DNA of 59,941 nucleotides, counting the filler, from Squatina squatina (lineage: Eukaryota): the NCBI GenBank assembly GCA_031763465.1. It is 3 parts of 3 records of this genome, joined end to end, with 100 filler letters (N's around TTAATTAATTAA, not from the genome) between each part and the next. Parts side by side here need not be neighbours in the genome. Positions count along the whole stretch, not along the records: positions 23,021 to 45,179 come from JARFOE010000001.1; 2 more parts are not named here. The stretch is one strand, 5' to 3'. Shown in pieces: positions 5,591 to 59,941 of the stretch. A program made the translations under genes and the position numbers. The first letter of the stretch is position 1. Every line of letters starts with the position of its first letter. The notes beneath the pieces are model-generated. The model had not been told where the DNA came from, made no database searches, and was given only the letters and a program-made list of their open reading frames with translations.

Positions 5591-8235
5591 ATTATCATTG
5601 TTCTCCATATCATGGGCTAAGGATGGGAAAAATGACCCCACCATTGAATAACCTGCCAACACTCACCGCCTAGGCACACACATGAAGAATGGCCACTTGG
5701 GCAAGGTACTGAAGGATAATGGGTTCTTGTGGAACTGTATCTCTGTATGAAGCCGCACCTTCAAGAAAAGAGAAGGGGGAGGAAATGGGTAGAAAGGAAA
5801 GAGCAGAAAAATATTAAATCATCGTTTGAAAAAAGAGTCAGAGAGGAAGGGAGAAAATTGGAAGAAATGGAAAGAAAACACNNNNNNNNNNACTAAACTA
5901 ATAGGCAGGTCGTCAAAATAGAAGCTATGATTCTCACTGCAAACACCAGCTTGTATATAACGCCATCTATGAGTTGTAAAACCTTCTTCTTTAAATAATG
6001 TATTTAAAAGTAGTACTTAGATTAAATTACCACACTCTCAGCCATCCTTCTCCATGGATTGAAATGGAACAAGACACAGGTCAGTTAAGTGTATGTAGAA
6101 TGTAAATACTGTTAATACACTTTTTTATTGTTCCAAACACACAAACATGACCATTTATTTGATGTCTTGTTAACACCATCCATGTTGTTATGACAAGTTC
6201 TAATTTCAATAAACATTAAGTAAAAGTATTTTTAACAGTGGATTATGAATTGCTTTGCTCCCCAGTGAGCTGTGGAATTTTGCTTTTACAGAATATCAAA
6301 GACTGTTGATAGAAGCCACACCTCACATTTTTTGGCATTAATATTGCTCCAAAAGGAGTGTTATGTCTTCTTGCATTTTAGTTTCNNNNNNNNNNNNNNN
6401 NNNNNNNNNNNNNNNNNNNNNNNNNNNNNNNNNNNNNNNNNNNNNNNNNNNNNNNNNNNNNNNNNNNNNNNNNNNNNNNNNNNNNTAATACCATGAATCC
6501 AAAATACAATTTGACTTATTCACTCACCATATATCAATGGCCTTCATAATATCTGTTACATACAATAATAGTGACTCACCACCAGCAACACCACAAGAGT
6601 GCATGTGCATAATTTTAGATCTTTACGTAACAATGGAGAGTGGTAAACTTCTGCGATTATTATTTCACTCTTGTTTATTTTAGATGAGCCACGAGGGTTA
6701 ATCACATAAAATTAAAAAGAAAATGCAGATACACATTGCTCTCTGACCACTGGCTGCAGTGTACTTAGTGTGGGATGTAATGGAAAAAAAAGCTTCATTT
6801 CTTAACAATGAATGTAATGGGACAATCTGCATTATTTACCCAATGAATGTATAAAGATACTGAACCAACCGCATTAAACAGAGGGTTGTGTTTTTTTTTC
6901 CTCCCTCTAGTGCACATAGTAGCTGCTTTGTTGGAACAAACTCTTATCTGGGAATGAATCCTTCTGGCCAATCTGGAATTGAGAAGTTCCAGAAAACTCC
7001 CTACTAGTCTCCACGGAAACATCTATGGGGCTGAAATTTGTACATCTGATAAAGATTGCCAATGATGCGAGAAAACCATTGTGGCCGGCTGGGGGATGGG
7101 AAACCAAGTGACTGCCCAGTTTAATGGGAGACATTGAAGCAACAGTCTTTTTCGAATGTTTTGAGAAAGATGTCATTGTGAGATGCTGTGCACAAGATAA
7201 AGTCTGTTGTTGTGCTGTCTGGACTGACCGAGGATCATTTTAGAGGATTGACTACATTTTGGCCCTGTCTGTAATGTTTTAATAAATTTGAAAATGAATG
7301 GCTTACCTTTTGTGGTAATTTACCAGTGCTCTACTGTTCTCAGTTGGATGCTACAGTTAGTTAAAAAGTTTAAATCAAAAAAAGACCCACAGTTTCATAT
7401 CTTCAATTGGCTTAATGCTACTGTGTGTTTAACTATCTGGCTACTTCTTCTACCAGACTTTACTACATAGTTGGTACTTGTTTTAAATATCCCCAGAACA
7501 TGTAGATTAAAAGCCTGCCAGGTATAACTTAGAAGTGGTGAATAACATGGGCAATAATTAGTCTGAGCATGAATCACAGTTTGAGAAATGATCTAAACCT
7601 GAAGCAAATTATTCACTTAGCATTCCTGCCAAGCTTTTCGCTCTACAACAGATCAAGAAATGACAATTGTACGCCACCCTCATTGCTAACTCTTAATGCA
7701 CTTCGAAAATCTTTTGCTANNNNNNNNNNNNNNNNNNNNNNNNNNNNNNNNNNNNNNNNNNNNNNNNNNNNNNNNNNNNNNNNNNNNNNNNNNNNNNNNN
7801 NNNNNNNNNNNNNNNNNNNCTGTGCAATTCTGGATGGGCGGCCATTTTGGGCAGTGCATGCACTAATGACGTCACAGCGCCGCGTTTAGACTAATGCTAG
7901 TGCCTAGAGCATTACGGGCTTTGCGCCCGTTTAGTGCCAGCGCTAACAGCACCCAAATTTTGCCCCCGCGTTTTAGCGCTAAAAGTGGCCTAACGCCAGT
8001 TTTGCGCCAATTTGACGCTCGAAGTTTGACCATGAATTGGCCGCCCACTGTTTTCTGTGAGCCCATCATAAGTCCCGATCCACCTCCAACTGATTGGCTG
8101 ACACAGTGGTGGCTTACACTCTGGGCAAACTGTGGTCTATAGTTGTCTAAATCAATGAAACTGGCTGCAATGCAAATATCTTTTTCCACTGCTGGATTGG
8201 TTAAACACACTTATTGTTAAATATTCATCAGATAC

Positions 8236-34857: not shown

Positions 34858-35433
34858 GGCATGTCCAGGTGTACTGTTGCCCTTGAAATGTAAGGGCAAA
34901 TTTGTACTGGTCTTCCCGTTTATGGGGAATTGACCAGAACCCATTGGAGATATCCAGCACTGTGAAAGTGGTTGCGGTCTGGAATGCTCCCTATGAGGTC
35001 AGCAACAGTCGCACTGTGGGCGCGCAGGCTGGGATATTTTTATTGAGCACACGATAGTCCACAGTGGCTCTCCACGACTGGTTGGGCTTCTTAACCGGCC
35101 AAAGTGGTGAGTTTACGTGGGTGGCTATCAGCCTCAACACCCCCTGTTCTACGAGGGATCCCAGTGCCGTCTCTAAGTTGGCTCCTGCCTCTCTGGGGAA
35201 ACTGTACTGTTTCTGTGGCCATGACATGGGGTCCCCTTGCACCCACTTCTACCCCTGTCACCCTGCCACAGTCGTGCTTGTGAGTGGCAAATGTGGCGAG
35301 GTTGTCCTGCACGTTCACCTGATATTTGGCTGGGGTATTATAGACCAACTGCTCTCGGTCGTAATTCCCCTTGGGCTTCATAGTACAAACACTACCCCTT
35401 CCTTCCCTATCTTTTGGGATCACTAGCACCTCC
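34858..35433 (-). mobile_element. Endogenous retrovirus-like pro/RT fragment (copy A; same family as 46927-52480)
   Basis: Frameshifted PQKQY.FPREA...NSPLWPVKKPNQSWRATVDYRVLNK...VLDISNGFWSIP...QYKFALTFQGQQYTWTC. Confidence 0.9.
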
Positions 35434-35533: not shown

Positions 35534-35675
35534 CGTTGCTGTGTGTGCAGTTATTTACCCCCCATGGGTTTGCAGAGCACTGATTGCGGGTAGGCTCTGT
35601 CCCGTTACACTGTCCCCAGTCCCCTGTCCATAGTCGGCGCCTCCTGTTGCTGACAGAGCCGTCCCACAGTTCAAC
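35534..35675 (-). pseudogene. Truncated SRCR pseudo-exon
   Basis: Only the 3' half of an SRCR exon remains. It is fused to the minisatellite and has a 19-nt deletion at 35610/35611 relative to the intact copies. Confidence 0.75.
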
Positions 35676-36179
35676 GAGTGGGGAACTCCCCTCGCCCGAG
35701 CGGGGAACACCCGTCACCCGAGTGGGGAACTCCCCGTGCCCGAGCGGGGAACACCAGTCACCCGAGTGGGGAACTCCCCTCAACCGAGCGGGGAACTCCC
35801 CTCAACCGAGCGGGTAAGTCCACTCACCTGAGTGGGGAACTCACTTCACCCGAGCGGGGAACACCCCTGCCCCGAGTGGGGATCTCCACTCACCCGGGCG
35901 GAGAATTCCTCTCACCCGAGCGCGGAGCTCCCCTCACCCGAGCGCGGAGCTCCCCTCACCCGAACGGGGAACTCCCCTCACCCGAGCCGGGATCTCCTCT
36001 CACCTGAGTGGGGATGTCGCCTCGCCCGAGCGGGGAACACCATTCACCCGAGCGGGGAACTTCCCTCAACCGAGCGGGAAACTCTACTCACCCGAGCGGG
36101 GAACTCCTGTCACCCGAGCAGGTAAGACCACTCACTCGAGCGGGGAACTCACTTCACCCGTGCGGGGAACTCCACTCAC
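35676..36179. repeat. 22-bp minisatellite (about 23 units)
   Basis: Tandem TCACCCGAGCGGGGAACTCC(A/C)C; on the minus strand each unit equals the exon end plus GTGAGT. Confidence 0.92.
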
Positions 36180-36494
36180 CCGAGCAGGTAACTCCGGCGT
36201 CCTGGCTGTGTGTGCAGTTATTCAGCCCCCATGGGTTGGCAGAGCACTGATCGAGGGCAGGCTCTGTCCAGTTACATCTCACATCATCCAACGAGATGTC
36301 CCCAGTCCCCTCTCCATAGTAGGCGCCTCGTGTTGCTATCAGGGCCGTCCCACAGTTCAACAGTCTGCAGACCACGTTTGCTGCATTCACATCCCAGCCA
36401 TTGTCACAGACGGTCCCCCAGGAGGAGTTATGGTAGACCTCAACTCTCCCGGAGCACATGTTGGTACCGTTCACCAGCCGTATGGGCACCGGTC
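36180..36494 (-). CDS. Group-B SRCR domain exon (DMBT1/CD163-like), domain 5 in this window
   Basis: 315-nt phase 1-1 AG/GT exon; IRLVNGTNMCSGRVEVYHNSSWGTVCD...HSQDAGVTCS, 8 Cys. Confidence 0.9.
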
Positions 36495-36765
36495 CTGGAA
36501 TAAAGACAGGAGCACGATTTAACGGGTTTCCACAATGCCGGAAGGAATCAACAGGGCCCAGACATCAGCATGCTCTTAACACCCACGTGAGCCTCTCAAC
36601 CAGCATCCTCATAATAAAGTTCAACATCCGACCTCACCCTATACTATGGTGGACGGGCGATGGTCAATGGGGGAGTGGGACGCTGTGTGCTCTGTCCTAT
36701 TTTCCCAGTCATGTGCTAGCATGACATTTCTGCATGGGGTCACATAGAGGGCGAAATTGCACAAC

Positions 36766-37310
36766 ACCCCGTTTGTAGGCGGCAAACCTGGTGAGGCAGG
36801 ACATCCAGCGCCCAGCGCAGAAGTCCCGCCCCGGAAGTGAAACTGTGGTTACTGCCCCCGAGAGGAAGTGGAGGTGGCTCAGGAGTCCTCAGCGCGCAAC
36901 TTAGAGTGTTATGCAGCCTCTCCACATTGCACTGACACGATGCCAGGACCACGCGAAATTCCACACGGAGGCGGGGCTGGTAAATTGGAGGTCAACGCAA
37001 AATGGCGCCGCGCACCACCCCTTTAACTTACGCCCCACGAGCTGAGTGCGGCCCGTTTCACAACCGGCAAGCTGGCACTAACATTGCCCGCGTTAGCCTC
37101 ACATGGCGCAGCCCAATGTCCACCGTTTGGCAAAGGGGTCGCCACGCACAGCAATGACATCATCTCCAGAGGCGCAGCGGCCCGTTTTGATACCGGCGGG
37201 GGCGGGGCGTTACCGGATTTGCGCCTCCGCTGACGCCCGCACAATTTCACGGGAGCCGGTAGCACCACCCCATCCCCCCGGGTGAAAAATTGTTTGCGCC
37301 CCGTTAGCGC
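36766..37310. mobile_element. GC/CpG-rich non-autonomous DNA-transposon-like insert
   Basis: Abrupt CpG-rich block starting GGGCGAAATTGC and containing CAATTTCAC; resembles the other G4TGAAATT-type termini in the window. Confidence 0.35.
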
Positions 37311-37547
37311 CATTCAGAAGTCACTAACGGCAGTCGCAAGCCATGCACGTTTTTATCCCATAAACTCCACTCAGCGTTATTAAATTTCCTCTGCCATGTG
37401 TCTGCCCAGTTCACCAGCCTGCATATCTCCTCCTGAAGTCTGTTACTNNNNNNNNNNNNNNNNNNNNNNNNNNNNNNNNNNNNNNNNNNNNNNNNNNNNN
37501 NNNNNNNNNNNNNNNNNNNNNNNNNNNNNNNNNNNNNNNNNNNNNNN

Positions 37548-37745
37548 CTCACCCGAGTGGAGAACTCACCCAAGCAGCTAACTCCTCTCCCGCGAGCGGG
37601 GAACTCCACTCACCCGAGCGGCTAACTCCCCTCGCCCGAGCGGGGAACTCCCCTCGCCCGAGCGGGGAACTCCCATCCCCCGAGAGGGGAACTCCACTCG
37701 CCCGAGCGGGGAACTCCACTCGCCCGAGCGGGGAACTCCACTCAC
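37548..37745. repeat. 22-bp minisatellite (about 9 units)
   Basis: Same unit as 35676-36179, starting at the donor of the 37746-38060 exon. Confidence 0.9.
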
Positions 37746-38060
37746 CTGAGCAGGTAACTCCAGCATCCTTGCTGTGTGTGCAGTTATTTAGACCCAATGA
37801 GCTTGCAGAGCACTGATCGAGGGCAGACTCTGCCCCATTACACCGCACACCACCTAACCAGATGTCTCCAGTCCCCTCTCCATAGTCGGCGCCTCCTGTT
37901 GCTGACAGGCCCGTCCCACAGTTCACAACTCTGCAGACCACACTCGCTGCATTTACATCCCAGCCATTGTCGCAGACGGTCCCCCAGACGGATTTACGAA
38001 AGACCTCAACTCTCCCAGAGCACATGTTGGTTCCGTTCACCAGCCGTACGGGCACCGGAC
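37746..38060 (-). CDS. Group-B SRCR domain exon, domain 4
   Basis: 315-nt tag|GPVPVRLVNGTNMCSGRVEVFRKSVWGTVCD...HSKDAGVTCS|gtgagt. Confidence 0.9.
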
Positions 38061-38604
38061 CTAGAATGGAGATGGGCACACAGTTACTTTGCTCTGGGAT
38101 TATCTGGACTTTCACTGGAGTCATCGGCTGGACATTTGGGCCCAGGTATCAGGCTCCTCCCAATATCGAGACTGATCATACCTGCCATAACTCTCGCGTA
38201 ACACCATTTCTGGGAATGCCCTGCACCATCCCTCCAGGTTTAATGCTGTCACCACTTGGTACTGAGGCACGAGACCCTCGTCAAGCCAGACTCACTTCCA
38301 GAAGGCTCTCTCCTCCAAGAGAACCAGGTGAGAACAGCTCACACAGCAAAGGCTGGGGATGGACCCTGGGCCTTTCCTGCTCCGTGTGTGAGGGGCTCAG
38401 TACCACACCAGCCGGGGCATTTACCCATCGAGCAATTGGAGCCCCTCTCTTAGCCTTCACACTAACATCGCTCACTCACCATCTCCAATCACAGTAGCAG
38501 GGCGGCAGTAAAGTATCTGCAACTGCTGCCATGTTTACCCGAGCAGGACACTCCACTCACCCGAGCAGGTAACTCCACTCTTTGGAGCAGGCTACTCCAC
38601 TCAC

Positions 38605-38919
38605 CTGAGCAGGTAACTCCAGCATCCTTGCTGTGTGTACAGTTATTGACATCCGATGAGCTGGCAGGGCACTGATCGAGGGCAGGCTCCGTCCCGTTGC
38701 ACCTCAAACCCCCTAACCAGATGGCCCCAGTGCCCTCTCCATAGTAGGCGCCTCCATTTGCCGAAATGGCCGTCCCACAGCTCAGAAGTCTGCAGACCAC
38801 GCTCGCTGCATTTACGTCCCAGCCACTGTCGCAGACGGTCCCCCAGACAGACTTACGATAGACCTCAACTCTCCCGGAGCACATGTTGGTGCCATTCACC
38901 AGCCGTACTGGCACCGGAC
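38605..38919 (-). CDS. Group-B SRCR domain exon, domain 3
   Basis: 315-nt cag|GPVPVRLVNGTNMCSGRVEVYRKSVWGTVCD...HSKDAGVTCS|gtgagt. Confidence 0.9.
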
Positions 38920-39452
38920 CTGGAATAGAGACAAGAACAAAGTTAATCTGGTCTGGGGTTACTTGGAATTTCACTGGAGTCATTGGCTGGACATTTGGGC
39001 CCAGGTATCAGGCTCACTATACAGACTGATCCCACCTGCTCTAACTCAGCTGTAACACCTGTTTTGGGAATGTCCTGCAGCCCCCATCTGGGACTAACGC
39101 TGATATCACCTGGTACTGAGGCACGAGACCCTCACAGGCTCCCTCCCAAGAGCATCATTCCTCCAAGAGACGCAGGTGAGATCAGCTCACAAAGCCCAGG
39201 CTGGGGATAGAGCAGGGGGCTTTTCCTGTCTGTGTGTGAGGGGCACGGTACCATAACAGCTGGGACGTTAACTCATCACACAATTGCAGACAGTCCCTTT
39301 GCCTTCACACCAATACACCTCACTCACCGCCTCAGATTACAGAAGCAAAGCGGCAGTAAAGAAGCTGCCAATGCTGACATGTCCAGCTCAAGCAGCTAAT
39401 TCACTCCCCCGAGCGGGGAACTCCCCTCACCCGAGCCGGGAACTCCCCTCAC

Positions 39453-39767
39453 CCGAGCAGGTAACTCCGGCGTGCTTGCTGTGTGTGCAGTTATTCAGTC
39501 CCCGTGAGTGTGCAGGGCACTGATCGAGGGCAGGCTCTGTTCCGTTACACCTCACATCATCCGACCAGATGTCCCCAGTCCCCTGTCCATAGTAGGCGCC
39601 TCCTGTTGCTGACAGAGCCGTCCCACAGTTCAACACTCTGCAGACCACTGTCGTTGCGTTTACATCCCAGCCATCGTCACAGACGGTCCCCCAGACGGAT
39701 TTATGATAGACCTCAACTCGCCCGGAGCACATGTTGTTACCGTTCACCAGCCGTATGGGCACCGGAC
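39453..39767 (-). CDS. Group-B SRCR domain exon, domain 2
   Basis: 315-nt cag|GPVPIRLVNGNNMCSGRVEVYHKSVWGTVCDD...HSKHAGVTCS|gtgagg. Confidence 0.9.
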
Positions 39768-40175
39768 CTGGAATAGAGATGGGAACACGGTTAATGTGGT
39801 CTGGGATTACCTGGATATTCACTGGATTCATCGGTTGAACATTTGGGCCCAGGTTTCAGGATTCCCCCACTTTCCAGACTGATCCCACCTGCACCAGATT
39901 TGAGAAGGACCTGCAGACCCCATCCAGGATTAATTCTGCCACCACCTGGTGACTCCATCCTTCAAGAAACCCAGTGAGATCAGCTAACGCAGCACAGGCC
40001 AGAAATGGAGCCTGGGCCTTTCCTGATTTGTGTGTGGGCTCAACACACCAGCTGGGACATTTACCCCACAAACAGTTGCAGACCTTCCCTTTGCCTTCAC
40101 GCTAATACCCCTCACTCATTATCTCCAATCATTTCAGCAGGGCAGCAGTAAAGTAGCTACCAGCACTGCTGCGCT

Positions 40176-40397
40176 AACCGGAGCAGGGAACCCTACTCAC
40201 CCGAGGGGGGAACTCACCTCGCCCGAGTGGGGAACTCACCTCGCCCGAGTGGGGAGCTCCACCCACCCGAGCAGGTAGCTCCACTCACCGAGCGGGGAAC
40301 TCCCCTCACCCGAGCAGGTAGCTCCACTCACCCGAGCGGGGAACTCCCCTCGCCCGAGCAGGTAGCTCCACTCACCCGAGCTGGGAGCTCCACTCAC
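40176..40397. repeat. 22-bp minisatellite (about 10 units)
   Basis: Same unit; several copies keep the exon-type GAGCAGGTA variant. Confidence 0.9.
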
Positions 40398-40712
40398 CCG
40401 AGCAGATAACTGCAGCGTCCTTGCTGTGTGTGCAGTTATTGGCAGCCAAGGGGTTGGAAGAGCACTGATCGAGGGCAGGCTCTGTCCCGTTACACCTCAC
40501 ATCATTCAACCAGATGTCCCCAGTCCCCTGTCCATAGTAGGCGCCTCCTCTTGCTGACAGGGCCGTCCCACAGTTCAACACTCTGCAGACCACGCTCGCT
40601 GCATTTACATCCCAGCCATCGTCACAGACGGTCCCCCAGACGGTTTTATGAAAGACCTCAACTCGCCCGGTGCACATGTTGGTACCGTTCACCAGCCGTA
40701 TGGGCATCGGAC
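40398..40712 (-). CDS. Group-B SRCR domain exon, domain 1
   Basis: 315-nt cag|GPMPIRLVNGTNMCTGRVEVFHKTVWGTVCDD...HSKDAAVICS|gtgagt. Confidence 0.9.
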
Positions 40713-41020
40713 CTGCAATAAAGACAGGAACACAGTTAAACTAGTGTGGGATTATGTGGACTTGACTGGAGTCATCGGCTGGACATTTGGGCTTCGGTGT
40801 CAACACTGGTTAGCACAGAGGCCATGCAACTAAGAGCAGTAATCGAGAGGACTGGACGAGGAATCCAGGGACTTGTGCAAGTAATCTGGACATCATGATC
40901 TAACCCGTGCTATACCTACCTTGGGAGCATTTGAAGGAAAGCTCTACTCTTAGTCTAACTTGTGCTGCACCTGCCATCAGCTTGCTCAGCATAAAAGGCA
41001 CCAACCAATTACCTGAGCAC

Positions 41021-41145
41021 CTAATTCCACTCACCCGAGCGGGGAACTCCCCTCACCCGAGCGGGGAACTCCACTCACCCGAGCGGGGATCTCCACTCAC
41101 CCGAGCGGGGATCTCCACTCACCCGAGCGGGGATCTCCACTCACC
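41021..41145. repeat. 22-bp minisatellite running into a gap
   Basis: 5-6 near-perfect TCACCCGAGCGGGGA(A/T)CTCC(A/C)C units. Confidence 0.9.
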
Positions 41146-41245
41146 NNNNNNNNNNNNNNNNNNNNNNNNNNNNNNNNNNNNNNNNNNNNNNNNNNNNNNN
41201 NNNNNNNNNNNNNNNNNNNNNNNNNNNNNNNNNNNNNNNNNNNNN

Positions 41246-41909: not shown

Positions 41910-42738
41910 GAGACTGTGTCCTCTGTTCCTAGACTCACCCATGAGAGGAAACATCCGCTTAGCATTTACCCTGTCCAGCCCCCTGAGAACCTTATATGTT
42001 TCAATACGATCTCTTTGCTTTTATATTCTATTAATCTATTTATAAACCAATAACGCATATGCTTCTTTCACCCCCCTTATCAACTCTCCCTGCCACCTTT
42101 AAGGATTTGTGTACGCGCACACAGGTCAGTCTGCTCACCTGCTCTTTTCACACTGCTCCCCATTGAACTGCACCTGCTACGCTTCTGCCCATTTCACCAT
42201 CCTGTCTTTCACACTGGAGCCCGGAACTATCTCATTTCATGATTTGCCACTTTGTCAAGATTCAAATGAGCTGCAAACATTATAATGTTGCTCCCTGCGC
42301 CCAAGTCTCTAGTCGTTCATCGAAGCTGCCGAGAGTAATGGACCCAAAACTGACCCTTGGCGAGCACCACCGCCAACCGCCTCCCGGTCCGAAAAAACGT
42401 CCAATCACCGCTTCACTTTGCTTCCTGTCGCTGAGCCAAATCCCTGTCCATACCGCCACTTTCCCCTTAACTTTGTGGGTTGCCATCTTCTTAATAAGAA
42501 TTCTGCGCGGCACTTTGGGGAATGCCTTCTGAAAGTCCATAGGAGCAAGATCTGCTGCACTATCTTGATCGACCTTCTCCGTTAACTCATCAAAGAATTC
42601 AATCAAGTTCGTCAGACACGATTTACCTTTAACAAATCCGTGCTGCCCCTCCTTGATTAACCCATGCCTTTCCAAATTAAAGTTTATTTTGTCCCTGATA
42701 ATGGTTTCCAATAACTGCCCCGCCCAGGTTATAAATAA
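41910..42738 (-). mobile_element. CR1 LINE RT and 3' fragments
   Basis: QHGFVKGKSCLTNLIEFFDE...MDFQKAF.KVP.R.L; internally deleted. Confidence 0.85.
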
Positions 42739-42838
42739 NNNNNNNNNNNNNNNNNNNNNNNNNNNNNNNNNNNNNNNNNNNNNNNNNNNNNNNNNNNNNN
42801 NNNNNNNNNNNNNNNNNNNNNNNNNNNNNNNNNNNNNN

Positions 42839-43440
42839 CGAGCACAGGACCCAAAACTGACCCTTGGACCAACCACCTCCTAGTCTGAAAAACATCGATC
42901 CACCTCCCTTTGCTTCCTGTCACGGAGCCAATGTCATATCCATACCATCACTTTCTGCTTCATTCTGTGGGCTTCCATCTTCTTAACAAGCCTCCTTTGT
43001 GGCACTTTGTTGAATACCTTCCGAAAGTCTATATATACATCTACTCCACTACTCTGAGTAACCTTCTCTGTTTCTTCATTAAAGAATTCAATCAAGTTAA
43101 TCAGATACGATTTGCCTTTAACAAATCCATGCTGGCTCTCCTTGATTAAACTATGCCTTACCAAATGAAAGTTTATTTTTTCCCTGATATTGGTTTCCAA
43201 TGACTTCCTCACCACCAATGTTAGGCTGACTGGCCTGTGGTTTCCTGGTTTATCCCTCTCCCCTTTCTTGAATAGTGGTATAACATTAACAACCCTCCAG
43301 TCCTCCGGCACTACTCATGTATCCAATGAGGACTGAAAGATTGTGACTAATGCCTTTGCAATTTCTACCTTTGCTTCTGTCAGCAACCTCGGATGCATCC
43401 CATCTGGACCAGGTGACTTACCAACTTCCCGTAATGCTAA
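42839..43440 (-). mobile_element. CR1 LINE RT fragment (second copy)
   Basis: PEDWRVVNVIPLFKKGERDKPGNHRPVSLT...SQHGFVKGKS.L.NLIEFF...DFRKVFNKVP. Confidence 0.88.
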
Positions 43441-46926: not shown

Positions 46927-48365
46927 CCCGATGATAGGCCCCAGTATAGTGAGTGTTGGTCATCTTCCGAGGCACCGGGAGCACCAAGGCCAATGTGCCC
47001 CCTGCAACAGCAAAGGTTCAGTCCACCATCAGCGGATGGTTGCGCGGCACCATCGTAGAGTGATTATCTACTGCCATATAAACCCCTCCAGTTAGAAGAA
47101 ATGCTGACTAGCATGATGAAATTGAAACATGGAGGAGTTGCCTATGTCCATTTTGCCAATGTAGAACAGATAGGCGGCGTCAATAATTGTAACGATGACG
47201 AAATGAAGAAACCGACACTGTTCTCCCTAGACGGGAAGCTGTATCAGAGTTTGACGGCAGCCACTGAAGTGGGGGGCGGAATAGTGAACGGCTTGAAAGA
47301 TGAAATTTTAGTGGCACTAGGCCATAGCCAAGGTAGTCCTTTCTTACAAGCTCAACAAACTAGGCAGCAGGCAGGCGAGTCGCCGGACACATTCGCGGAT
47401 AGATTGTGGCGGGTATACTTGAAAACAACTGGAGGAAATCTAATACGCACGAACTTAATAGAGGCTCCCAGAAATCATTGGCTGAAGACCATAGTGTCCA
47501 ACAGATCAGGGAAAGGCCGGGGCATGGTTTGACCCTGAGGACAATAATAATACGGACGTGGGCGTGCTAAGGAAGCTTACTTGAGCTTTCAAATCAGACA
47601 AAGGGGAAGAAAATAAACAAAGGGGAAGGTGCATGAAGTAAGAGGAAACGTGGGGAGTAAAAAGAAATGGAGGTACAAGGTGGGTAATGCGGGCAAACTC
47701 CAGGCTTGTTTCAACTGTGGAAGAATGGGACACTGGAGTAAGGAGTGTAGGTTCCCGAAAGAGGCGAAACCAGAATACAAGGGTCTCAAGGGGTCGAAAC
47801 CATGGGTGGTAGAGACAAATCAAGAGAAAGTAGAAGACCAGTGAAACTCTTAGTGGCCGCACTACAGCAGGTTATGTCCAGAGATCAAGGGAAACTGGGC
47901 GCTGCAGTGAAAGAGCCGTGCCCAGCCCGAATACCTGTGTCCTCTCACCTATGATGAGTGGGGTAGACCATGTGTAAATATTGAAATAGAGACCACTCGG
48001 GGAAGGTATCTAGTGGACACTGGAGCCTCTAGTACGATGGCCCACTCACCAGATCCAACCACTTCCCAATGGTCAAGTGGAGACCCCTTTAAATTGGCAG
48101 GTTTCACAGGTAATGAACAAGCTGGGGCGGTCGATACCCTTGACTATAAGATTAGGACCCTTGTCACCAAATGGGAATGTGTTCTCTTGAAATGGGAACA
48201 GCCCGGCTCGGGGGTTCTCGGGTCCGAGTACATGTGGGTCCACCATGTGATAGTAGATATGAAAAACAACTGTCTATGGGGGGAGTTGATTCGGATAAAC
48301 TAGAGGAGATTTTAGTTATTCCCAACGATGAAAGGGTAAAAGGCAGCACCTGTACGATGGAACCA
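46927..48365 (+). mobile_element. ERV-like gag-pro fragment (copy B)
   Basis: CCHC knuckle CFNCGRMGHWSKEC (47707-47748), aspartic protease YLVDTGAS (D at 48016); frameshifted. Confidence 0.9.
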
Positions 48366-48465
48366 NNNNNNNNNNNNNNNNNNNNNNNNNNNNNNNNNNN
48401 NNNNNNNNNNNNNNNNNNNNNNNNNNNNNNNNNNNNNNNNNNNNNNNNNNNNNNNNNNNNNNNNN

Positions 48466-48872
48466 GACAACATCGACACGACGGGGCTGCAGTCAGGTGA
48501 AGACGGACGGAGACCAGTCACCTCCAGATCCAGGCCTACAATCAACATCGGTAATGACCAGCCACGTGGGTGATTGTAAGTTCCAGGCACATCACTAAGG
48601 GTTGTGCATTGCGGAAGCTGCATTCAAGGCAAGAAGGACGGAAACCGGTCAGTTCCAGGTCCAGGCCTACGATCAGCATCGGTAACAACTAGCCACGTGA
48701 GTGATTGTAAGTTTCAGTCAAATCATAGATGGGTTTGTACTGGGGTTTTGTTGGTTTTAATAAACTAACTAGTTTTGGTTGAGCCAGGACCTGTTTGTTG
48801 TGTATATTTTGTTCCTGTAATTCCCGAGTCCAAAAATCAGTGTAAGGCACGAAAGGAACGGAACACCTTACA
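48466..48872 (+). mobile_element. Putative 5' LTR (3' part) of ERV copy C
   Basis: Internal 131-bp-offset duplication, AATAAA at 48759, ends in CCTTACA just before a TGG-initiated PBS-like site and gag; the 5' end is lost in the gap. Confidence 0.65.
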
Positions 48873-48876
48873 ATCT

Positions 48877-48894
48877 TGGGGCCCGCGGCAGGAC
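48877..48894 (+). promoter_or_regulatory. Putative primer-binding site
   Basis: TGGGGCCCGCGGCAGGAC begins 4 nt after the LTR-terminal CA; tRNA identity unresolved. Confidence 0.4.
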
Positions 48895-48911
48895 TTGAGG
48901 TCGGAAACACA

Positions 48912-51315
48912 ATGATGAACAAGGTCAGAGTCAAGAGACCCCCAATGGAAGATAAGATATACTCACATGTGTGTAGTGAGGTAGACATTTCTGAGCGATG
49001 GGCACAAGAAATGATACACTCTGTTAATCTGCAGGAGAAAGTGGCAGAGTGGACAGTTAGTAGTAACCATAGGAAATCGAGAGAGAAAGCAATTTGACTA
49101 ATATGTTTGCAAAAGCAAAAGCAGGTTCTCATGAAGAGAGTAGAAGAATTAGAAGAAGTAAAAGAGGAGTTAGGAATTAAGGCAAATGGTAGAGAAGCAG
49201 TAGTAAATCAGTTGATGGAAGATTTAGGTGAAGAAAGACAGGAAAGGAAAATGAAGGAAGAAACGGCACAAAGTATGCTAGTGTATTTATAATGCCGGGT
49301 TACTGAGTGCAGGAGACAGTGTCAGACTCATTACGAGGAAAGCATAAGGAATCTGAGTGAGCCGAAGAAGCAGAGGAACGATTGAAGGATATTAAGATGG
49401 CATATAGAGTAGGCCGAAAACAGGGGTATGAAGGGGCCGATCACGGGCCATGTAATGAAGGAATTCGTAAACTGACCCGAGCATATCCGGGGCCAGAGGT
49501 ATGGTTTGTCTCATGGAGCCGGGAGAAGTTGGGGGAGAATGGGATGAGAGGGGTAAAGAACCCAATGATGGGCCCCAGTATAGTGAGTGTTGGTTGGCTC
49601 CCGAGACACTGGGACCACCGAGGCCAATGTGTCCCCTGCGACAGCAAAGGTTCGGTCCACCGCCAGCGCATGGTGGCCCGGCGCTGTTCCAGAGTGACTA
49701 TGTGCTCCCATATACACCCTTGCAGTTACAAGAAATGCGGCTAACGTGGTGAAATTGAAATATGGAGGAGACGCCTCCGTCCATTTTGCCAACGTAGAAC
49801 AGATAGGCGGTATCAATAATTGCAACGATGACAAGATAAAGAAACTAATACTGTTCTCCTTAGACGGGAAGCTGTATCAGAGTTTGTTGGCTGCCATTAA
49901 ACAGTTTGAAAGACGGAATTTTAGCAGCATTAGGATATAGCCAAGGTAGTCCTTTCTTACAGGTTGAGCATACTAGACAGCAGGCAGGCACGTTGCCCGG
50001 CACATTTGTGGATAGATTGTGGTCGGTATATCAGAGCAACTGGAGGAAATCTAGCACGCGGAGAAGTCATTGGCTAAGGACCGTAGTGTTCAACAGCTTG
50101 CCGCAGATCAGAGCAAGGGCTGAGTCATGGTTTGACCCTGAGGACAATAATAATACTGAGGTGGGTGTGCTGAGAAAGCTAACTTTAGCTTTCAAATCAG
50201 ACAAAGAGGAAGAATATAAACAAAAGGGGAAGGTGCGTAAAGTAAGAGGGAACGTGGGGAGTAAGAAGGAATGGAGGCACGAGGGGGGTAATGTGGGCAG
50301 ATCCCAGGCATGTTTCAACTGTGGGAAAATGTGACACTGGAGTAAGGAGTATAGGTTCCCAAATGGGGGGAAACCAGGACACGAGGGTTCCGAGGCATCG
50401 AAACCAAGGGTGGTAGAGATAAGACAAGAGAAGGTAGAAGACCCAGTGAAATTCTTAGTGGCCACATTACAGCAGGTTATGTGCAGAGATCAGGGGAAAC
50501 TGGACGCTGCTGTAAGTGACGGAGGACCCGGTATGTCTGCACCCCTACAGTGATGGGGCGCACCCAGCCCAAATACCTGTGTCCCCTCACCCATGATGAG
50601 TGGGACAGACCATGTAGAGAGTAAAGTGGAGACCTGGGGAAAGTATCTAGTAGACACTAGAGCCTCTAGTACGGTGGTCCATTCACCAAATCTGACCACT
50701 TCATGGTCAGAGTGGAGTCCCATTTAAATTGACAGGTTTTACAGGTAATGAACAGGCTGGAGTGGTATCAATACTCTTGACTGTAAAGTTAGGAGCCGTT
50801 GTCACCAAGAGGGAATGTGTTCTGATGAAGTAGGAACAATCAGGTTCAGGGGTTCTCGGAGCCGATTATATGTTAGCTCACCACGTGATAGTAGATATGA
50901 AAAACAACTGTCTATGGGGGCAGTTGATTCGGATAAACTAAGGAAATTTTAGTCATTCCCAAAGATGAAAAGGTTAAAGGTAGTGCCTGTACGATGAAAG
51001 CAAAGGAAAGCAATGACATAGAACATTTGATTAATAGGGTACCAGCAAAGTACCAAGCAAGTTTACGGGGTAACATCGCTGTGTTCGCTACCCACAGGCA
51101 TGATTGTGGAAGGGTAACGGGGTAGAGGTGAAGGTAGATGGAGACCCAATGATGCGGCCTCAGAAACAGTACAATTTTCCCCGAGAAGCAGAAAGGGATT
51201 TGGAAACTGTGATAAACTCCTTGGTGGATCAGGGAGTATTGAGACCAATAGCTACCCATGTGAATTCATCCCTTTGGCCGGTTAAGAAACCCGATCAATC
51301 TTGGGGAGCCACGGT
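48912..51315 (+). mobile_element. ERV-like gag-pro-RT (copy C), defective
   Basis: Gag from ATG 48912 to TGA 50553 with an N-terminal coiled coil, a capsid-like region and a broken knuckle (50311); protease DTR; RT start PQKQYNFPREA...WPVKKPD; many stops and frameshifts. Confidence 0.9.
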
Positions 51316-51415
51316 NNNNNNNNNNNNNNNNNNNNNNNNNNNNNNNNNNNNNNNNNNNNNNNNNNNNNNNNNNNNNNNNNNNNNNNNNNNNNNNNNNNNN
51401 NNNNNNNNNNNNNNN

Positions 51416-52480
51416 GGTGGGACTCCACTCACCAAAGCCGAGCACTTCCCCATGGTCGAGTGGAGTCCATTTAAATTGAAAGGTTTTACAGGTAATGAAC
51501 AGGCTGGGTCGGTATTGATACCATTGACTATAAAATTAGGATCCTTTGTCACCAAGTGGGAATGTGCTCTGATGAAGTGGGGACAACCCGGTTCGGGGGT
51601 TCTCGGGGCCGATTACTTGTTAGCTCACCACTTGATAGTAGATACGAAAAACAATTGTCTATGGGGGGCAGTTCATTCGGATAAACTGGAGGAAATTTTA
51701 GTCATTCCCAAAGATAAAAAGGTTAAAGGCAGTGCCTGTACGATGAAACCAAAGGGAAGTTCTGAAATAGAGCAATTGATTAATAGCATCCCGGCAAAGT
51801 ACCAAGCGAGTGTACGGGGTAACATCGCCGTGTTCGCTACCCACAGGCATGATTATGGAAGAGTAATGGGGTAGAGGTGAAGGTAGATGGGGACCCAATG
51901 TTGCAACCTCAGAAACAGTAAAATTTTCCCCGAGAAGCAGAAAGGGATTTAGAAACTACGATAAACTCCTTGGTGGATCAGCGTGTATTGAGAACAATAG
52001 CTACCCATGTGAATTCACCTCTTTGGCTGGTTAAGAAACCCAATCAGTCAATGCGAGCCACAGTTGACTTCCAGGTTCTGAATAAAAATATTCCAGCCTG
52101 TGAGCCCACTGTAGCGGCTGTAGCAGATCTGATAGGAAGTATCCCTGCGTCGATAGCAACATTCACCGTACTCGATATACCAAACGGGTTTTGGTTGATC
52201 CCCATGAGGCAGGAAGGCTAGTATAAGTTTGCTTTTACATACAAAGGACAACAATATACATGGACGTGTCTCCCTCAAGGGTTTCACAACAGTCCCTCGA
52301 TTTTTCACCAGTGTATGGCCAATGCGTTAAAGGGTATTAGTCAGCCCAACCAGTTGATCCAATATGTGGACAACCTGTTTTTATTCTCTGAAGGTACAGA
52401 GGATCATGAGCCATTATTGTGTGAACTATTAAAGGAGGCTGGTTTTAAGGTGAATCTCAAGAAAGCCCAAATTAGGCAAG
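51416..52480 (+). mobile_element. ERV-like pro-RT (copy D), defective
   Basis: VLDIPNGFWLIP, YTWTCLPQGFHNSPSIFH and YVDN (52363-52374; degenerate YVDD). Confidence 0.92.
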
Positions 52481-54353: not shown

Positions 54354-56466
54354 TGCGTGAAAATCTCAAACAGCATTTTAAAGTAAACCTTGATCGTTAC
54401 AAGGCATTATTCCATGACTTCATTGATGCAGCAGAATGGGAGGATATCATTAATGAGTGTGACCCTTTGTTTGTCCCTCCTGAAGGAGTACCTTTGGGTC
54501 TACGTAATATTCATATATTTGGCTTGGCCAATGTATTACATCGTCCAATCATTTTGCTAGATTCACTGAGTGGAATGAGAAGTTGTGGTGATTATTCAGC
54601 TACCTTTCTCCCAGGATTAGTTCCTGAAGAAAAATGTCGGGGAAAGGATGGACAGCTTAATAAACCTATTTGTATTGCATGGAGCAGTTCAGGGCGCAAC
54701 CATTATATACCTTTGGTTGGGATAAAAAGGGGTCCTTTACCCAGACTTCCTTTGAAACTGTTGCCTAAAGCCTGGGGTGTCCCACAGGAGCTTATTAGGA
54801 AATACATACAGTTTGAAGATGACAGCTGTCTGTTAGGAGGTGACCGAAGTTTGCAGGACAAGTACTTGCAGAGGCTAGTTGCTGCGATGGAAGAAATTTT
54901 CTTGGAGAAGCATGACATCCACCCTTCTCTGGTAGCAGATGTTCATCAATATATATACAGAAGGACAGGAGTAATTGGAATACAACCTGAGGATGTTACT
55001 GAAGCTGCAAAGAAGGCTGTAATTGAAACTCGTTTGCAGAAATGTTTGATTTGTGGTGCTCTTTCAGAGCTTCATGTGCCTACAGAGTGGCTAGCTCCAG
55101 GAGGAAAGTTGTACAACTTAGCTACAAGCACCCATGGTCAACTGAAGCCAGACAAAAATTACAGCTTTCCTGTTCACCATCTGGTGTGCTCGTATGACCC
55201 NNNNNNNNNNNNNNNNNNNNNNNNNNNNNNNNNNNNNNNNNNNNNNNNNNNNNNNNNNNNNNNNNNNNNNNNNNNNNNNNNNNNNNNNNNNNNNNNNNNN
55301 NNNNNNNNNNNNNNNNNNNNNNNNNNNNNNNNNNNNNNNNNNNNNNNNNNNNNNNNNNNNNNNNNNNNNNNNNNNNNNNNNNNNNNNNNNNNNNNNNNNN
55401 NNNNNNNNNNNNTCCCAATAACTTTGGAATGGAATGGAAGGGTGGTGCGAGAAACTGTTTATTGGTTTCAATATGAAAGTGAAGTGGCTCTAAACAGCAA
55501 TGTTTATGATGTTGCTATGAAGCTTGTCACCAAGCATTTTCCTGGTGAATTTGGAAGTGAAATCTTGATTCAGAAAGTTGTTAACACCATATTACATCAT
55601 ACAGCCAAAAAGAATCCTGATGAATATACTCCAGTTACTGTTGAAGGTGCACATAGTCGTAGAGTTGGTGACTTGCAAGATGAACCAATATCAGAGCCAC
55701 ATTTACCTACCAAAATTATTTTAATGGGTCAGAAATCAAAGACTCTGCATAAAGAAGAACTGAACATGAGTAAAACTGAACGAGGTATTCAGCAGAATAT
55801 TACTGACCATGCAGCTATTGTGCAAAAGCGAAAAACTGACCAATTACGACAGGATCAGAAGGGACCAGGCCAACCATCTTCTTCTGGAATTGTTAAAGAT
55901 GGTTCATCATCTGCCCCAGCCACTCCCACTAAGTCCCCTTATTCCCCATCAGCTAGCAAGGAAAAAAAGATTAGAGTAACCACTAGTGATGGACGACAGG
56001 CAACATTGACCCTTCAAGCATCTGTAACATTTTCTGAATTTCAAGAANNNNNNNNNNNNNNNNNNNNNNNNNNNNNNNNNNNNNNNNNNNNNNNNNNNNN
56101 NNNNNNNNNNNNNNNNNNNNNNNNNNNNNNNNNNNNNNNNNNNNNNNTCTGAATTTCAAGAAAGCATAGCTAAAGAATTTAACCTTCCTCCACGTTTGCA
56201 ATGCATACGGTATGGCTTTCCTCCAAAAGAATTGCATCCTCCTAAAGTGGGATGGGAGAACGAGGTTTTGCCCCTGCAGCACGGTGATCGTGTTTCTGTG
56301 GAGATTCTGAAGGACAGCAAGGAACCTGTGCCTGCTGCTTCAACATCTGCAGCTCATTCCTGGAAAACTGAAGAACCTGAAGCATCTGGTAGAGCTTCTG
56401 TTAAGGATATGCAAGACCATATTGATCTTGAAATGTCTTCCCTCTGCCTTCTAGCAACCTTAATGG
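54354..56466 (+). CDS. VCPIP1: Deubiquitinase VCPIP1 (VCIP135), large first coding exon (5' part in gap, two internal gaps)
   Basis: RENLKQHF...FIDAAEWEDIINECDPLFVPPEGVPLGLRNIHIFGLANVL...WSSSGRNHYIPL (OTU His loop)...UBX-like KKIRVTTSDGRQ...EMSSLCLLATLM(G)|gtgag. Confidence 0.95.
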
Positions 56467-57587
56467 GTGAGAACTTACATTATCTTATTTTTGTTCAATT
56501 TAGTTCATTTAACTAGAATGTTATAATGATACAATAATATATTTAGTGGCATAGCTACTTTTTGTGTAAATAGATAATATCCTTTCCAATATTTTTAGCC
56601 AAACGCTTCTTCATAATAAAGAAGAGCAGATAGATATATTACAGTGATACATGCACTGTGGGTTAAGTTGGCTTTGTAAAAAGAACTTTAAAATCACACA
56701 AAATGAGGGAAGATAACAGAACATCTATTTTGTGACACATTAACTGACCATGCATTTACGGTGTTTTATATGGTGTAGTTACATTCAGGAATTCCATTAA
56801 ATTGTATCGCAGTACAACCATCCTAACAGAGAATGGCTAGTTCAGCATGGACCAAAACCCTGATTTTGCTGATTCATGGCAAAGGCTCACCTGTGCCAAT
56901 AACATGAAGGTCAGGCCAAACTGACTATTGCAATGGCAAACCTTCCCCCTAAATTAAATAGGCTACTGTGATATGAAAATCAAGGCGATGCCGGACTGGG
57001 AGCCAATGTCGGTCGGCGAGCACAGGAGTGATGGATGGACGGGACTAGGTGCGAGTTAGGATACGGACAACAGGTTTTTTAGATCGGCTCAAGTTTACGC
57101 AGGGTGCAGGGTGGGAGGCTGGCAAAGTGAGGATTGGAATATTCGAAGCAGTCAGAGAAGGTGGATGGGAGTGTAAAACCTGGCAAGGCAGCAGCTTCTG
57201 AAGGGGGTGGCTTGCCACCAAAGGGGAAGATATGATGCAACAGAAAAATGGACAAATTAGTCATCATGGCTCAGTGGCGATATGTAGACAACACTTTGTT
57301 GCTGTTGAGTTGGAGGTTGGCAAGCAGAGAAGGTTCTCTCTTTGCTGAGAGAAATAAATACTGAACTGGACCCGAGAATGGCTGCACTCCAATTCACTTT
57401 GAAGAGGATGTCATCCAGTTACAATTGAATCCTCAGCAGCATTGCTCAGCCTTTAGCTATAAATGAAATGGCATCGACCCTCAGTGACGCATGGGAGTTT
57501 TGTAGAGCTTCGGGATATGATTTAGTCTAGCATGGCCAACGTCACCAGTGAGCAGCTGCAGAATATCTTTGGCCAAAGCTACTTGGG

Positions 57588-58373
57588 ACATAGAATGATG
57601 CAGGCAAGAAGGAGGCCATTTGGCCCATCGTGCCTGTGCTGGCTCCATGAAAGAGCTCTCCAAATAGTCTCACTCTCCAAATCTTTCCCCACAGTCCTGC
57701 AAATATTTCCCCTTCAAATATTTATGCAATTCCTTTTTGAACATCGGAACCGGAGGAGGCCATTCAGCCCCTCGAGCCAGTTACAGAGGAACAGGAGGAG
57801 GACATTCAGCCCTTCGAGTCTGCTCCGCCATTCAATGAGATCATGGCTGATCTGCAACCTAACGGCATATTCTCACCTTGGGCCCATATCCCTTAATACC
57901 TTTGGTTAACAAAAATCTCCGATTTAGAATTAACAATTGATCCAGCATTAATTGCCGTTTGCGGAAGAGAGTTCCAAACTTCTCCCACCCTTTGTGTGTA
58001 GAAGTGTTTCCTAATTTCACTCCTGGAAAGTCTGACTCTAATTTTTAGACTCTGCCCCTGTTCTTAGACTCCCCAACCAGCGGAAATAGTTTCTCTCTAT
58101 CCAACCTAGCTGTTCCCCTTAATATCCTGAAAACTTTGATTAGATCACCTCTTAACCTTCTAAATTCCAGGGAATACAACCCTAATGTGTTTAATCTCTC
58201 CTCGTTACTTAACCCTTGATGACCGGGTACATTCTGGTAAACCTACGCTTCACTCCCTCCAAGGCCAATATCTCCTTCCTAAGGTGTGGTGCCCAGAACT
58301 GCTCCCAGTGCTCCAGGTGGGGTCTAACCAGGGTTTGTACAGCTGCAGCATAACTTCTACCCCCTTGTATTCT
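57588..58373 (-). mobile_element. Stacked CR1/HER1 LINE 3' ends
   Basis: Repeated GGAGGCCATTCAGCCC tails and a reverse CR1 ORF2 C-terminus (AACCCTTTGTGTGTAGAAGTGTTTCCT region). Confidence 0.75.
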
Positions 58374-58473
58374 NNNNNNNNNNNNNNNNNNNNNNNNNNN
58401 NNNNNNNNNNNNNNNNNNNNNNNNNNNNNNNNNNNNNNNNNNNNNNNNNNNNNNNNNNNNNNNNNNNNNNNNN

Positions 58474-58671
58474 AGAGGGCAGTGGATGCTCAGTTCTTGA
58501 GTATATTCAAGACAGAAATAGATTTTTGGACATTAAGGAAATCAAAGGATATGGTGATAGTGCAGGCAAGTGGATTTGAGGTCGAAGATCAGCCATGATC
58601 TTATTGAATGGTGGAGCAGGCTCAAGGGGCCAAATGGCCGACTCCTGCTCCTATTTCTTAAGTTCTTATGT
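58474..58671 (+). mobile_element. CR1/HER1 LINE 3' tail
   Basis: GATCAGCCATGATCTTATTGAATGG...GGCCAAATGGCC.ACTCCTGCTCCTA plus a TTCTTATG-type tail. Confidence 0.75.
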
Positions 58672-58862
58672 AAGTAACTTTTTATAGAAAAAAATTCTAC
58701 CATTTTCCCTCAGTAACTGACAATTCTGATGACCCAAATAAGGATTGTAACATAAGAGATGTTAAACGTTTACATACTTCAAAATGATATTAATTTCAAC
58801 TATAAAGTTGTTTTTGAGGACTTTCATTAATATACATTTAAGGACTTTAGCTCTCCCAATAA

Positions 58863-59047
58863 CTGAATCATTGAGTATATTCAGGTCTGAGATAGATAGA
58901 TTTTTGGACTCTAGGGGAATCGAGGGATATGGAGATCGGGCGGGAAAGTGGATTTCAGATTGAAGATCAGCCATGATCTTATTGAATGTTGGAACAGGCT
59001 TGAGGGGTCATATGGTCTAGTCCTGCTTCTAATTCTTATGTTCTTAT
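58863..59047 (+). mobile_element. CR1/HER1 LINE 3' tail (second copy)
   Basis: Same tail as 58474-58671, ending TTCTTATGTTCTTAT. Confidence 0.75.
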
Positions 59048-59153
59048 TACAGACCAATGAATTTTTTGAAACGGAGATCATAAGTACTAAGTTGTTTTAA
59101 ACTGTATCAACTAACTCTAATATATTGTTCTTGGTGTTCATTCTTATATACAG

Positions 59154-59941
59154 GTTTAGCAGATGGCAAGCACTTCACTCTTCCCCATCTTCCTGGTAAG
59201 ACATTTGTATACAATGGAACAGATGATAAGCTGGAGCTGTGCATTGATCCAGCAGGGCACATTACCATTGGTCCTGACATTGACAATCTGATCAAAGAGG
59301 CCTTAAGTCAATTACGATCTGAGGGAGGGTCAAGAAGTAGGGAAGGAAGTCCCTCTTCGCATGGAGGGATGAAACTTGGCAGTGGAGGAGTGGTGCGAAA
59401 GAAATCTGAACAAATGCCAAATGTCACAGCTTTCCAGGGAAAAGGCCATTCCCTTGGGACTGCTTCAAGTAGTCCACAGTTGGAGCAGAGGCATAGCAGG
59501 GAAATGCAGGTACTCAGGAAACAAAGCATTGGTAGTTCTTCGGGAACAGATCTTAATTATGGTGTTGGCAAGTCTAGTCCCAAGCAAGGGGCTTCCCCAC
59601 CCAAGTCCAGCAGTGGGGATAGTCAGCTAATACGAATGGCGCCTGGTTTTGTAACAATGCGAGACGGTAGGCAACTTGATTCCTATTTAATTGAAGCACA
59701 ACGTAAGAAGTTGCAAGAGATGGTATCTTCCATTCAAGCCTCCATGGATAAACACTTGAGGGATCAAAATGCAGAACAATCAATACCTAGTGATGTCCCT
59801 GAAACAAAAGTACACTCTACAGCTTCCTCAGTCCAATTAATAATGAGAACTGAAAGCCTTCAAACCGATGCACTGGAGCCACTGCCAGTGACTCCACAAG
59901 CAGGTGACAATGAGAATTTGGGCATGGAAACAACAGCTGTT
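59154..59941 (+). CDS. VCPIP1: VCPIP1, last coding exon (runs off the window)
   Basis: cag|GLADGKHFTLPHLPGKTFVYN...SRSREGSPSSHG.MKLGSGGVVRKKSEQ..NVTAFQGKGHSLGT...RMAPGFVTMRDGR...IEAQRKKLQEMVSSIQASMDKHLRDQ; open to the window end. The small middle exon is not visible (probably in gap 58374-58473). Confidence 0.93.

Follow-up and report, generated by a model that had tools for sequence, protein, structure and literature searches.

What tandem copies of a splice donor are doing behind one exon after another is the question raised by an SRCR locus of the shark Squatina squatina, which lies within a window of 59,941 nucleotides and encodes SRCR domains in tandem, each on a single exon and with its cysteines conserved. 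Five intact 315-nt exons on the minus strand, exon A (40398..40712), exon B (39453..39767), exon C (38605..38919), exon D (37746..38060) and exon E (36180..36494), all match Pfam SRCR (E 4e-29 to 2e-32), and the splice model gives each of them phase 1-1, an AG acceptor and a GT donor. Each exon leads straight into a 22-bp array on the same strand: array A (40173..40413, first donor after 40398), array B (39403..39468), array C (38533..38620), array D (37548..37761, ending at a gap) and array E (35668..36195). A sixth 22-bp array (41007..41145, minus strand), whose exon is absent from the assembly here, enters the gap at 41146, and since two arrays run into gaps the lengths of these two are lower bounds. 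Directly fused to the end of array E is the 3′ half of a broken SRCR exon (35534..35675, minus strand) that lacks an acceptor and its first 132 nt, carries a 19-nt internal deletion and ends at a gap. Tandem Repeats Finder places period-22 arrays at 35675-36195, 37580-37762, 38537-38621, 39404-39468, 40177-40403 and 41026-41145 with 76-96% within-array matches at that period, and the observed periodicity was reached by 0 of 2,000 shuffles for each of the six arrays. A preliminary description of this DNA had reported exon ends repeated as donor-bearing 22-bp arrays in about 3 to about 23 copies; the arrangement is confirmed, and counts that include the exon-end unit now read 11 units for array A, 3 plus a decayed fourth (to about 39385) for B, 4 for C, at least 10 for D, 24 for E and at least 6 for the sixth array.

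The first unit straddles the exon/intron border in all five window exons, with 16 nt of exon and 6 nt of intron. The preliminary description was right in deriving the repeat from this junction; the later units are not exact copies, as their consensus differs from the exon end at unit positions 7, 10 and 15. Many of them do keep the donor, as had been noted: GT is retained in 33 of 53 downstream units within the window, including 6 of 10 later units in array A and 15 of 23 in array E, and it is lost in the five units after the first in array D. Over 12 exon-attached arrays, 107 later units comprise 62 with GT and 21 with GC. The coding pattern is kept in first units and lost in later ones, and an A at −2 occurs in 8 of 12 first units versus 8 of 107 later units. 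Two-unit arrays, the form expected for a starting state, are also present (L006 and L008).

Reading frame restricts which of these donors could yield protein. The earlier arithmetic, that 22 mod 3 = 1 places only every third donor in frame, is correct, and the in-frame TGA that it assigned to the +22 unit is found in three of five exon-attached window arrays (A, B and E) and has been lost in the other two. GT is kept by 9 of 12 +22 units, and a +22 unit that keeps GT has the TGA in frame, so the “every third” donor sits behind a stop. A later donor is reachable in an open frame in only 2 of 12 arrays: the +66 donor of array C, weak yet in frame and open, use of which would add 22 residues, and the +132 donor of array D, the first GT past the true donor, use of which would add 44 residues. 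By U1-match count, a crude measure of donor strength, no later unit outscores the first donor in 10 of 12 arrays; it is exceeded by one unit (+352) in array E and by two units in array L007, and several later GT units equal it.

Splicing the five exons at their first donors yields a single open 525-residue chain with an SGP joint. Among 16 cartilaginous-fish database gene models, SGP stands at 102 of the 121 places where a domain starts, a total made up of 95 joints and 7 more whose domain end is a variant (the count leaves out one Heptranchias joint), and first-donor splicing produces a domain joint identical to that of shark orthologues. An alternative reading is that the arrays are used as alternative donors, with +22 and +44 choices committing part of the transcripts to decay and those in-frame donors that are open supplying 22- or 44-residue linkers. 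The GT-bearing +22 units, the open donors of arrays C and D and the use of two downstream copies in human IFI6 and CBS, as described in the introduction of PMC1557585, speak for this idea, but 10 of 12 arrays offer no productive later donor, the 121 joints in relatives' models contain no array-type linker, and protein searches with array-encoded peptides returned 0 related proteins among 118 candidates (lengths 92-294) and, in another search, five proteins, all unrelated and without SRCR motifs. The read-through peptide was likewise found in none of six proteins examined, of eight returned. We consider this reading unlikely, and the proposal that the arrays add variable inter-domain linkers is weakened with it. 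A membrane anchor was absent from all seven relatives scanned, so that a truncated “secreted” isoform, also suggested earlier, would not act as a switch. The idea that the conserved segment before the acceptor hides a linker exon found no support, since the domains of relatives are joined directly.

Two further ways of silencing the later donors were considered. Selection against competing donors was not shown by the variation events per unit position, which are most numerous at +2 (13) and +6 (16) and are not raised at +1 (5) or +5 (7), a pattern that fits T-to-G/C drift in G runs. Masking of later donors by hairpins was rejected because the first donor is as costly to open as later GT donors (no difference at any of four window sizes, p 0.31-0.74); the arrays do fold well (z −1.8 and −4.1), but the derived unit ranks only 457 in stability among 2,079 double changes.

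The 22-bp unit is confined, in this genome, to the neighbourhood of one SRCR subfamily. A 25-nt unit pattern searched across 1.5 Gb gave ten exact matches, all ten on SRCR contigs, with 0 for the control; an array lies behind 6 of 7 closely related paralogous exons (≥74% identity) and behind 0 of the 17 less similar exons that have downstream sequence. In one individual of the species, paralogous arrays range from 2 to 24 units. The tree of the exons is star-like, and 10 of its 11 inner branches are open; a motif scan of flanking stretches L011-L019 (19-90% N) found no further SRCR exons, and a candidate terminal exon that matches is present on a different small contig, L061. The unit also occurs in an independent sequencing run of a relative, where contigs pass from exon into array and back out. 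In the sevengill shark Heptranchias, the terminus of a gene model equals the predicted read-through peptide into an exon-type second unit at 7 of 8 residues; as this model reads into the same duplicate, the founding copy is likely old, and the origin of the junction duplicate is likely common to another shark order. That the arrays are assembly artefacts might be suspected from the 1.15 million contigs and the two arrays that end at gaps, but units that differ from each other throughout, the independent-run contigs and the shared Heptranchias duplicate already largely refute this reading and leave it a negligible probability. Contigs of this assembly break in arrays, and the arrays partly account for the shattering of this gene in a short-read assembly.

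The same breaks have a place in a different proposal, that the arrays are fragile or recombinogenic spots driving gain, loss and shuffling of SRCR exons. Two junctions lend weak support to this earlier suggestion of recombination seeds: array E is fused to the broken exon, and the L021 array lacks an upstream exon, with an 8-nt match at the point where its end meets the pre-acceptor segment. The final four units of L007 also agree with those of array A, despite the difference between their exons. Against this, the array E junction has an overlap of only 1 nt and so is no array-to-array crossover, either junction could be a mis-assembly, the exons themselves offer 315 nt at 83-90% identity, and the star-like exon tree is uninformative on exon/intron discordance. 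A recombinogenic role is accordingly quite unlikely.

A regulatory role would give the expansion a purpose outside splicing. GGGRNWYYCC is the NF-κB consensus, and the HRAS1 minisatellite reportedly binds NF-κB. The two principal changes that set the array unit apart from the exon end are exactly the ones that create a match to this consensus, present in 36 of 107 later units versus 0 of 12 first units, and such a match is created by just 4 of 2,079 double changes or 2 of 144 AT-to-GC double changes; the expanded unit might thus form a cluster of NF-κB sites that serves an innate-immune gene as an enhancer within its introns. The main changes are nevertheless all AT to GC, the chance of gaining a random motif with comparable information is p 0.0014 (13% when 100 motifs are considered and 50% when 500 are), and the second unit in Heptranchias is exon-type, not motif-type. 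Motif positions were not conserved above background in variation events across derived units (5.8 events per invariant position versus 6.5 outside the motif and 1 at the free position), and the match is present in only 35 of 82 derived units. We regard an NF-κB enhancer as very improbable. A broader scenario, in which an early-shark junction duplicate would have been kept because it was functional, with two substitutions making an NF-κB site, a length-variable immune enhancer in each exon module and optional linkers in two arrays, also appears quite unlikely; if true, a regulatory array that grows with the number of domains would have been made out of a splice site. The case would become important only under the enhancer or linker readings, each of which is weakly supported.

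Together, these data favour, with reasonable confidence, a junction-spanning minisatellite that likely arose once, was likely co-duplicated with its exon and whose first donor is likely the one chosen in nearly all splicing. The series would begin when the junction of one ancestral exon in a DMBT1-like subfamily was duplicated once, head to tail. The distribution of arrays suggests that the exon-plus-intron module was then duplicated many times with the repeat included, and unit patterns suggest that a GC-richer unit variant expanded within some arrays while copies drifted and exon-like units often remained at the 3′ edge. The spliceosome would pick the most upstream donor, as in human F7, to give the standard SRCR chain, and in Squatina squatina the first donor is likely the one used; occasional use of a +22 or +44 donor would be frameshifted waste, with frameshifted or NMD products possible at a low rate. 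Several points count against this explanation: a neutral repeat would have persisted for a long time to be found in different shark orders, GT survives in 62 of 107 later units, arrays C and D hold open in-frame donors, and the human IFI6 and CBS precedents would by analogy allow use of downstream copies. The case offers a natural series, fit for testing first-donor choice, in which each of a dozen near-identical exons has between 1 and 24 donors behind it, graded in strength. If the origin is shared with another shark order, as is likely, repeats of this kind can evidently persist for long within a module that duplicates.

The preliminary description knew of no account of this for SRCR genes; our literature searches likewise turned up none, but the arrangement itself is known from other genes, and the window array belongs to the class that includes F7, CBS, IFI6 and the amphioxus “mirages”. 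The closest relatives by protein, the DMBT1-like multi-SRCR models of sharks (for example XP_067834490.1 and XP_067834492.1 of Heptranchias perlo), share the 105-residue repeat and the direct SGP joint, and the best of them are 75-88% identical to the Squatina squatina domains, domain by domain, a comparison made between proteins alone. According to Borensztajn et al. 2006 (PMC1557585), intron 7 of human F7 carries a 37-bp VNTR whose first monomer likewise straddles the exon/intron border and repeats the donor in tandem within the intron. F7 has one array with identical pseudo-sites, a number that varies between alleles and first-donor use proven by experiment, whereas the shark array accompanies 12 or more paralogous exons, varies from 2 to 24 units among paralogues, has heterogeneous units and has its donor use deduced from sequence. 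The introduction of that paper reports that only the first donor is used in LMNB2 and PDGFA, as in F7, and two downstream copies in IFI6 (6-16) and CBS; these four genes share the geometry of the shark arrays, and the CBS intron 13 unit, 24 nt of exon plus 7 nt of intron (alleles in PMC2630376), likewise has a length equal to 1 mod 3. In amphioxus, the mirage repeats of the Adh3 and globin genes, as described by Ebner et al. 2010 (PMC3087553), duplicate an exon/intron boundary in tandem, retain the signal in many but not all units, let edge units escape homogenisation as in the shark arrays and leave splicing undisturbed; they differ in lineage, in unit lengths and in having no tie to domain-exon expansion. 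Each of the IFI6, CBS, LMNB2 and PDGFA cases, as described there, is a single locus, whereas the shark repeat rides on a duplicating exon, and what is particular here is that the array likely travelled with the exon as it was duplicated.

The SRCR exons lie on the minus strand in the second part of the window (contig G000:C1; contig position = window position + 4,909,317), in two pieces at 35534-37447 and 37548-41145 flanked by 100-N gaps, within an assembly of 1.15 million contigs. Five exons of 315 nt each, A to E, bounded by AG acceptors and GT donors, encode one complete SRCR domain apiece, and the best matches of these domains are shark DMBT1-like gene models (75-88% for best hits). Our analysis confirmed the six period-22 arrays of the preliminary description, a periodicity reached by 0 of 2,000 shuffles: A at 40173-40413 (11 units), B at 39403-39468 (3), C at 38533-38620 (4), D at 37548-37761 (at least 10), E at 35668-36195 (24) and a sixth array with a hidden exon at 41007-41145 (at least 6). 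In each array, as also reported there, the first unit joins 16 nt from the exon end to 6 nt from the intron start. GT is kept in 33 of 53 later units in the window and in 62 of 107 across all arrays collected, with GC in 21 of the 107; at positions 7, 10 and 15 the consensus of the later units departs from the exon end, in every case from AT to GC. Before each acceptor, about 100 nt (about 38061-38170, 38920-39030, 39768-39860 and 40713-40790) are kept among copies and open in frame; the same stretch is translated in Heptranchias and Mustelus models and is therefore conserved across sharks. On a separate small contig, an exon (L061, G000:C438653:635-772) matches the short tail at the C-terminus of shark DMBT1-like proteins.

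The arrangement is real, and the repeat is confined to one SRCR subfamily. A 25-nt pattern has 10 genome matches, every one on an SRCR contig; reversed as a control, the pattern has none. A protein search of the genome returned 101 SRCR matches, and the best 30 were fetched. We analysed 28 exon ends lying outside the window, of which 3 had no sequence further downstream. In this set, 6 of 7 exons of at least 74% identity are followed by an array, as is one partial exon (L028), and none of the 17 exons of 66% identity or less is. Outside the window, array length ranges from 2 units (loci L006 and L008) to 22 (L028), and two more arrays, at L010 and upstream at L021, have no visible exon. Exon-like units stand mostly at the 3′ edge of arrays and the derived unit occupies the middle, as would be expected had a single duplication been followed by copying of the module and by expansion inside the arrays; the exon tree, being too flat, gives no order of events.

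Further evidence comes from independent sequence and from gene models of relatives. In run X1 (DNA contigs, share 0.07), 0 of 180 contigs matched at 99% or more and unique intron pieces matched at about 94-98%, and the source is therefore probably a close relative. Two X1 contigs pass from exon end into array, and one of these, 528 nt long, reaches the next exon after about four units. After its last cysteine the Heptranchias perlo model P0127 ends SGEWGYLLR, where an exact second copy of the exon-type unit would give SGEWSYLLR, an agreement with a rough chance of 2e-6 under uniform codons. Read-through in these models is probably an annotation error, yet it reports genomic letters. The founding duplicate is therefore likely common to Squatina squatina and a hexanchiform shark, on the evidence of one protein; the model P0097 and the Mustelus model P0088 add a weak match of the first three extra residues only.

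Splicing at the first donor gives an open chain of 525 residues with the joint SGP, which recurs at 102 of the 121 domain starts of 16 cartilaginous-fish gene models. In a simple count of U1 matches, no later donor outscores the first in 10 of 12 arrays; one of the 12 (L028) stands behind an exon that is probably broken. A at -2 occurs in 8 of 12 first units versus 8 of 107 later units, the units not being independent of one another. We consider it most likely, with good though incomplete confidence, that the spliceosome would take the first donor and that the later copies would drift. Use of later donors as alternatives, proposed earlier together with inter-domain linkers, is unlikely: productive in-frame donors do exist in C at +66 (weak) and D at +132, but the other 10 of 12 arrays have none, and none of the other 19 domain starts in the 16 models has an array-type linker (22 or 44 residues). 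Of the 12 arrays, 7 carry an in-frame TGA in their +22 unit, and in 2 others a stop lies 5 nt past the donor. Truncated secreted isoforms had also been suggested; no membrane-spanning stretch occurs in the seven relatives scanned, and early stops would therefore make no receptor-to-soluble switch. The paralogous exon L007 (L007:472-493) has a GC first donor, the flanks of which are otherwise strong, and GT copies at +88, +110 and +176, each out of frame; its array reaches a stop before any in-frame donor. First-donor choice has its sharpest natural test here.

Two rearrangements involve arrays. Array E is joined to a broken exon with an overlap of 1 nt, and at the L021 upstream array the exon and most of the intron are lost. 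These junctions suggest array fragility, but they fall short of showing that arrays drive copy-number change; the earlier proposal that arrays seed recombination behind SRCR copy-number change we regard as very unlikely. On the SRCR sense strand, L021:1-230 holds an array without an upstream SRCR exon, with only about 55 nt from array end to next acceptor. The broken exon at 35534-35675 matches the start of L028 (L028:1-545; 96% over 53 nt), which then enters a 22-unit array. L028 may represent the missing continuation, either as its second allele or as a sister copy.

The arrays fold as long hairpins. Masking of later donors by these hairpins was rejected, as later donors are at least as open as the first, and the derived unit has no exceptional stability. 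A putative NF-κB enhancer was also weighed, using an NF-κB consensus for motif matching. The two main derived changes create a match in 36 of 107 later units and 0 of 12 first units, an effect that only 2 of 144 AT-to-GC double changes would have; however, motif positions are as variable as others, the free position of the motif is the least variable, and the look-elsewhere estimate for some motif of this kind is 13-50%. We hold an enhancer role to be highly improbable.

Among other elements, a short interspersed repeat at 39974-40042, which looks like a tRNA-derived shark SINE, has many genome matches, related copies in adjoining introns and tandem copies on other contigs (for example L025) with a period near 87. 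Fragments at 34858-35432, 42283-43314 and 47059-51871 look, by sequence, like LTR-retroelement and LINE reverse transcriptase, gag and protease frames. Long open frames lying some 30 kb upstream on the scaffold (L014:3567-4784 and 7723-8118) resemble, by sequence, an SLC26 anion transporter, and those at 54356-59941, in the third part of the window, resemble the deubiquitinase VCPIP1.

Our literature search on shark, SRCR and DMBT1, with most subscription journals outside it, found no account of this case. Minisatellites with the first monomer across an exon/intron border are already described in PMC1557585, which reports use of only the first donor in F7, LMNB2 and PDGFA, use of two downstream copies as well in IFI6 and CBS, and, in F7 constructs, a bias towards the functional site lying furthest upstream. 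For amphioxus mirages, PMC3087553 describes splicing as unaffected. The SRCR arrays belong to this already known class of junction-spanning minisatellites.
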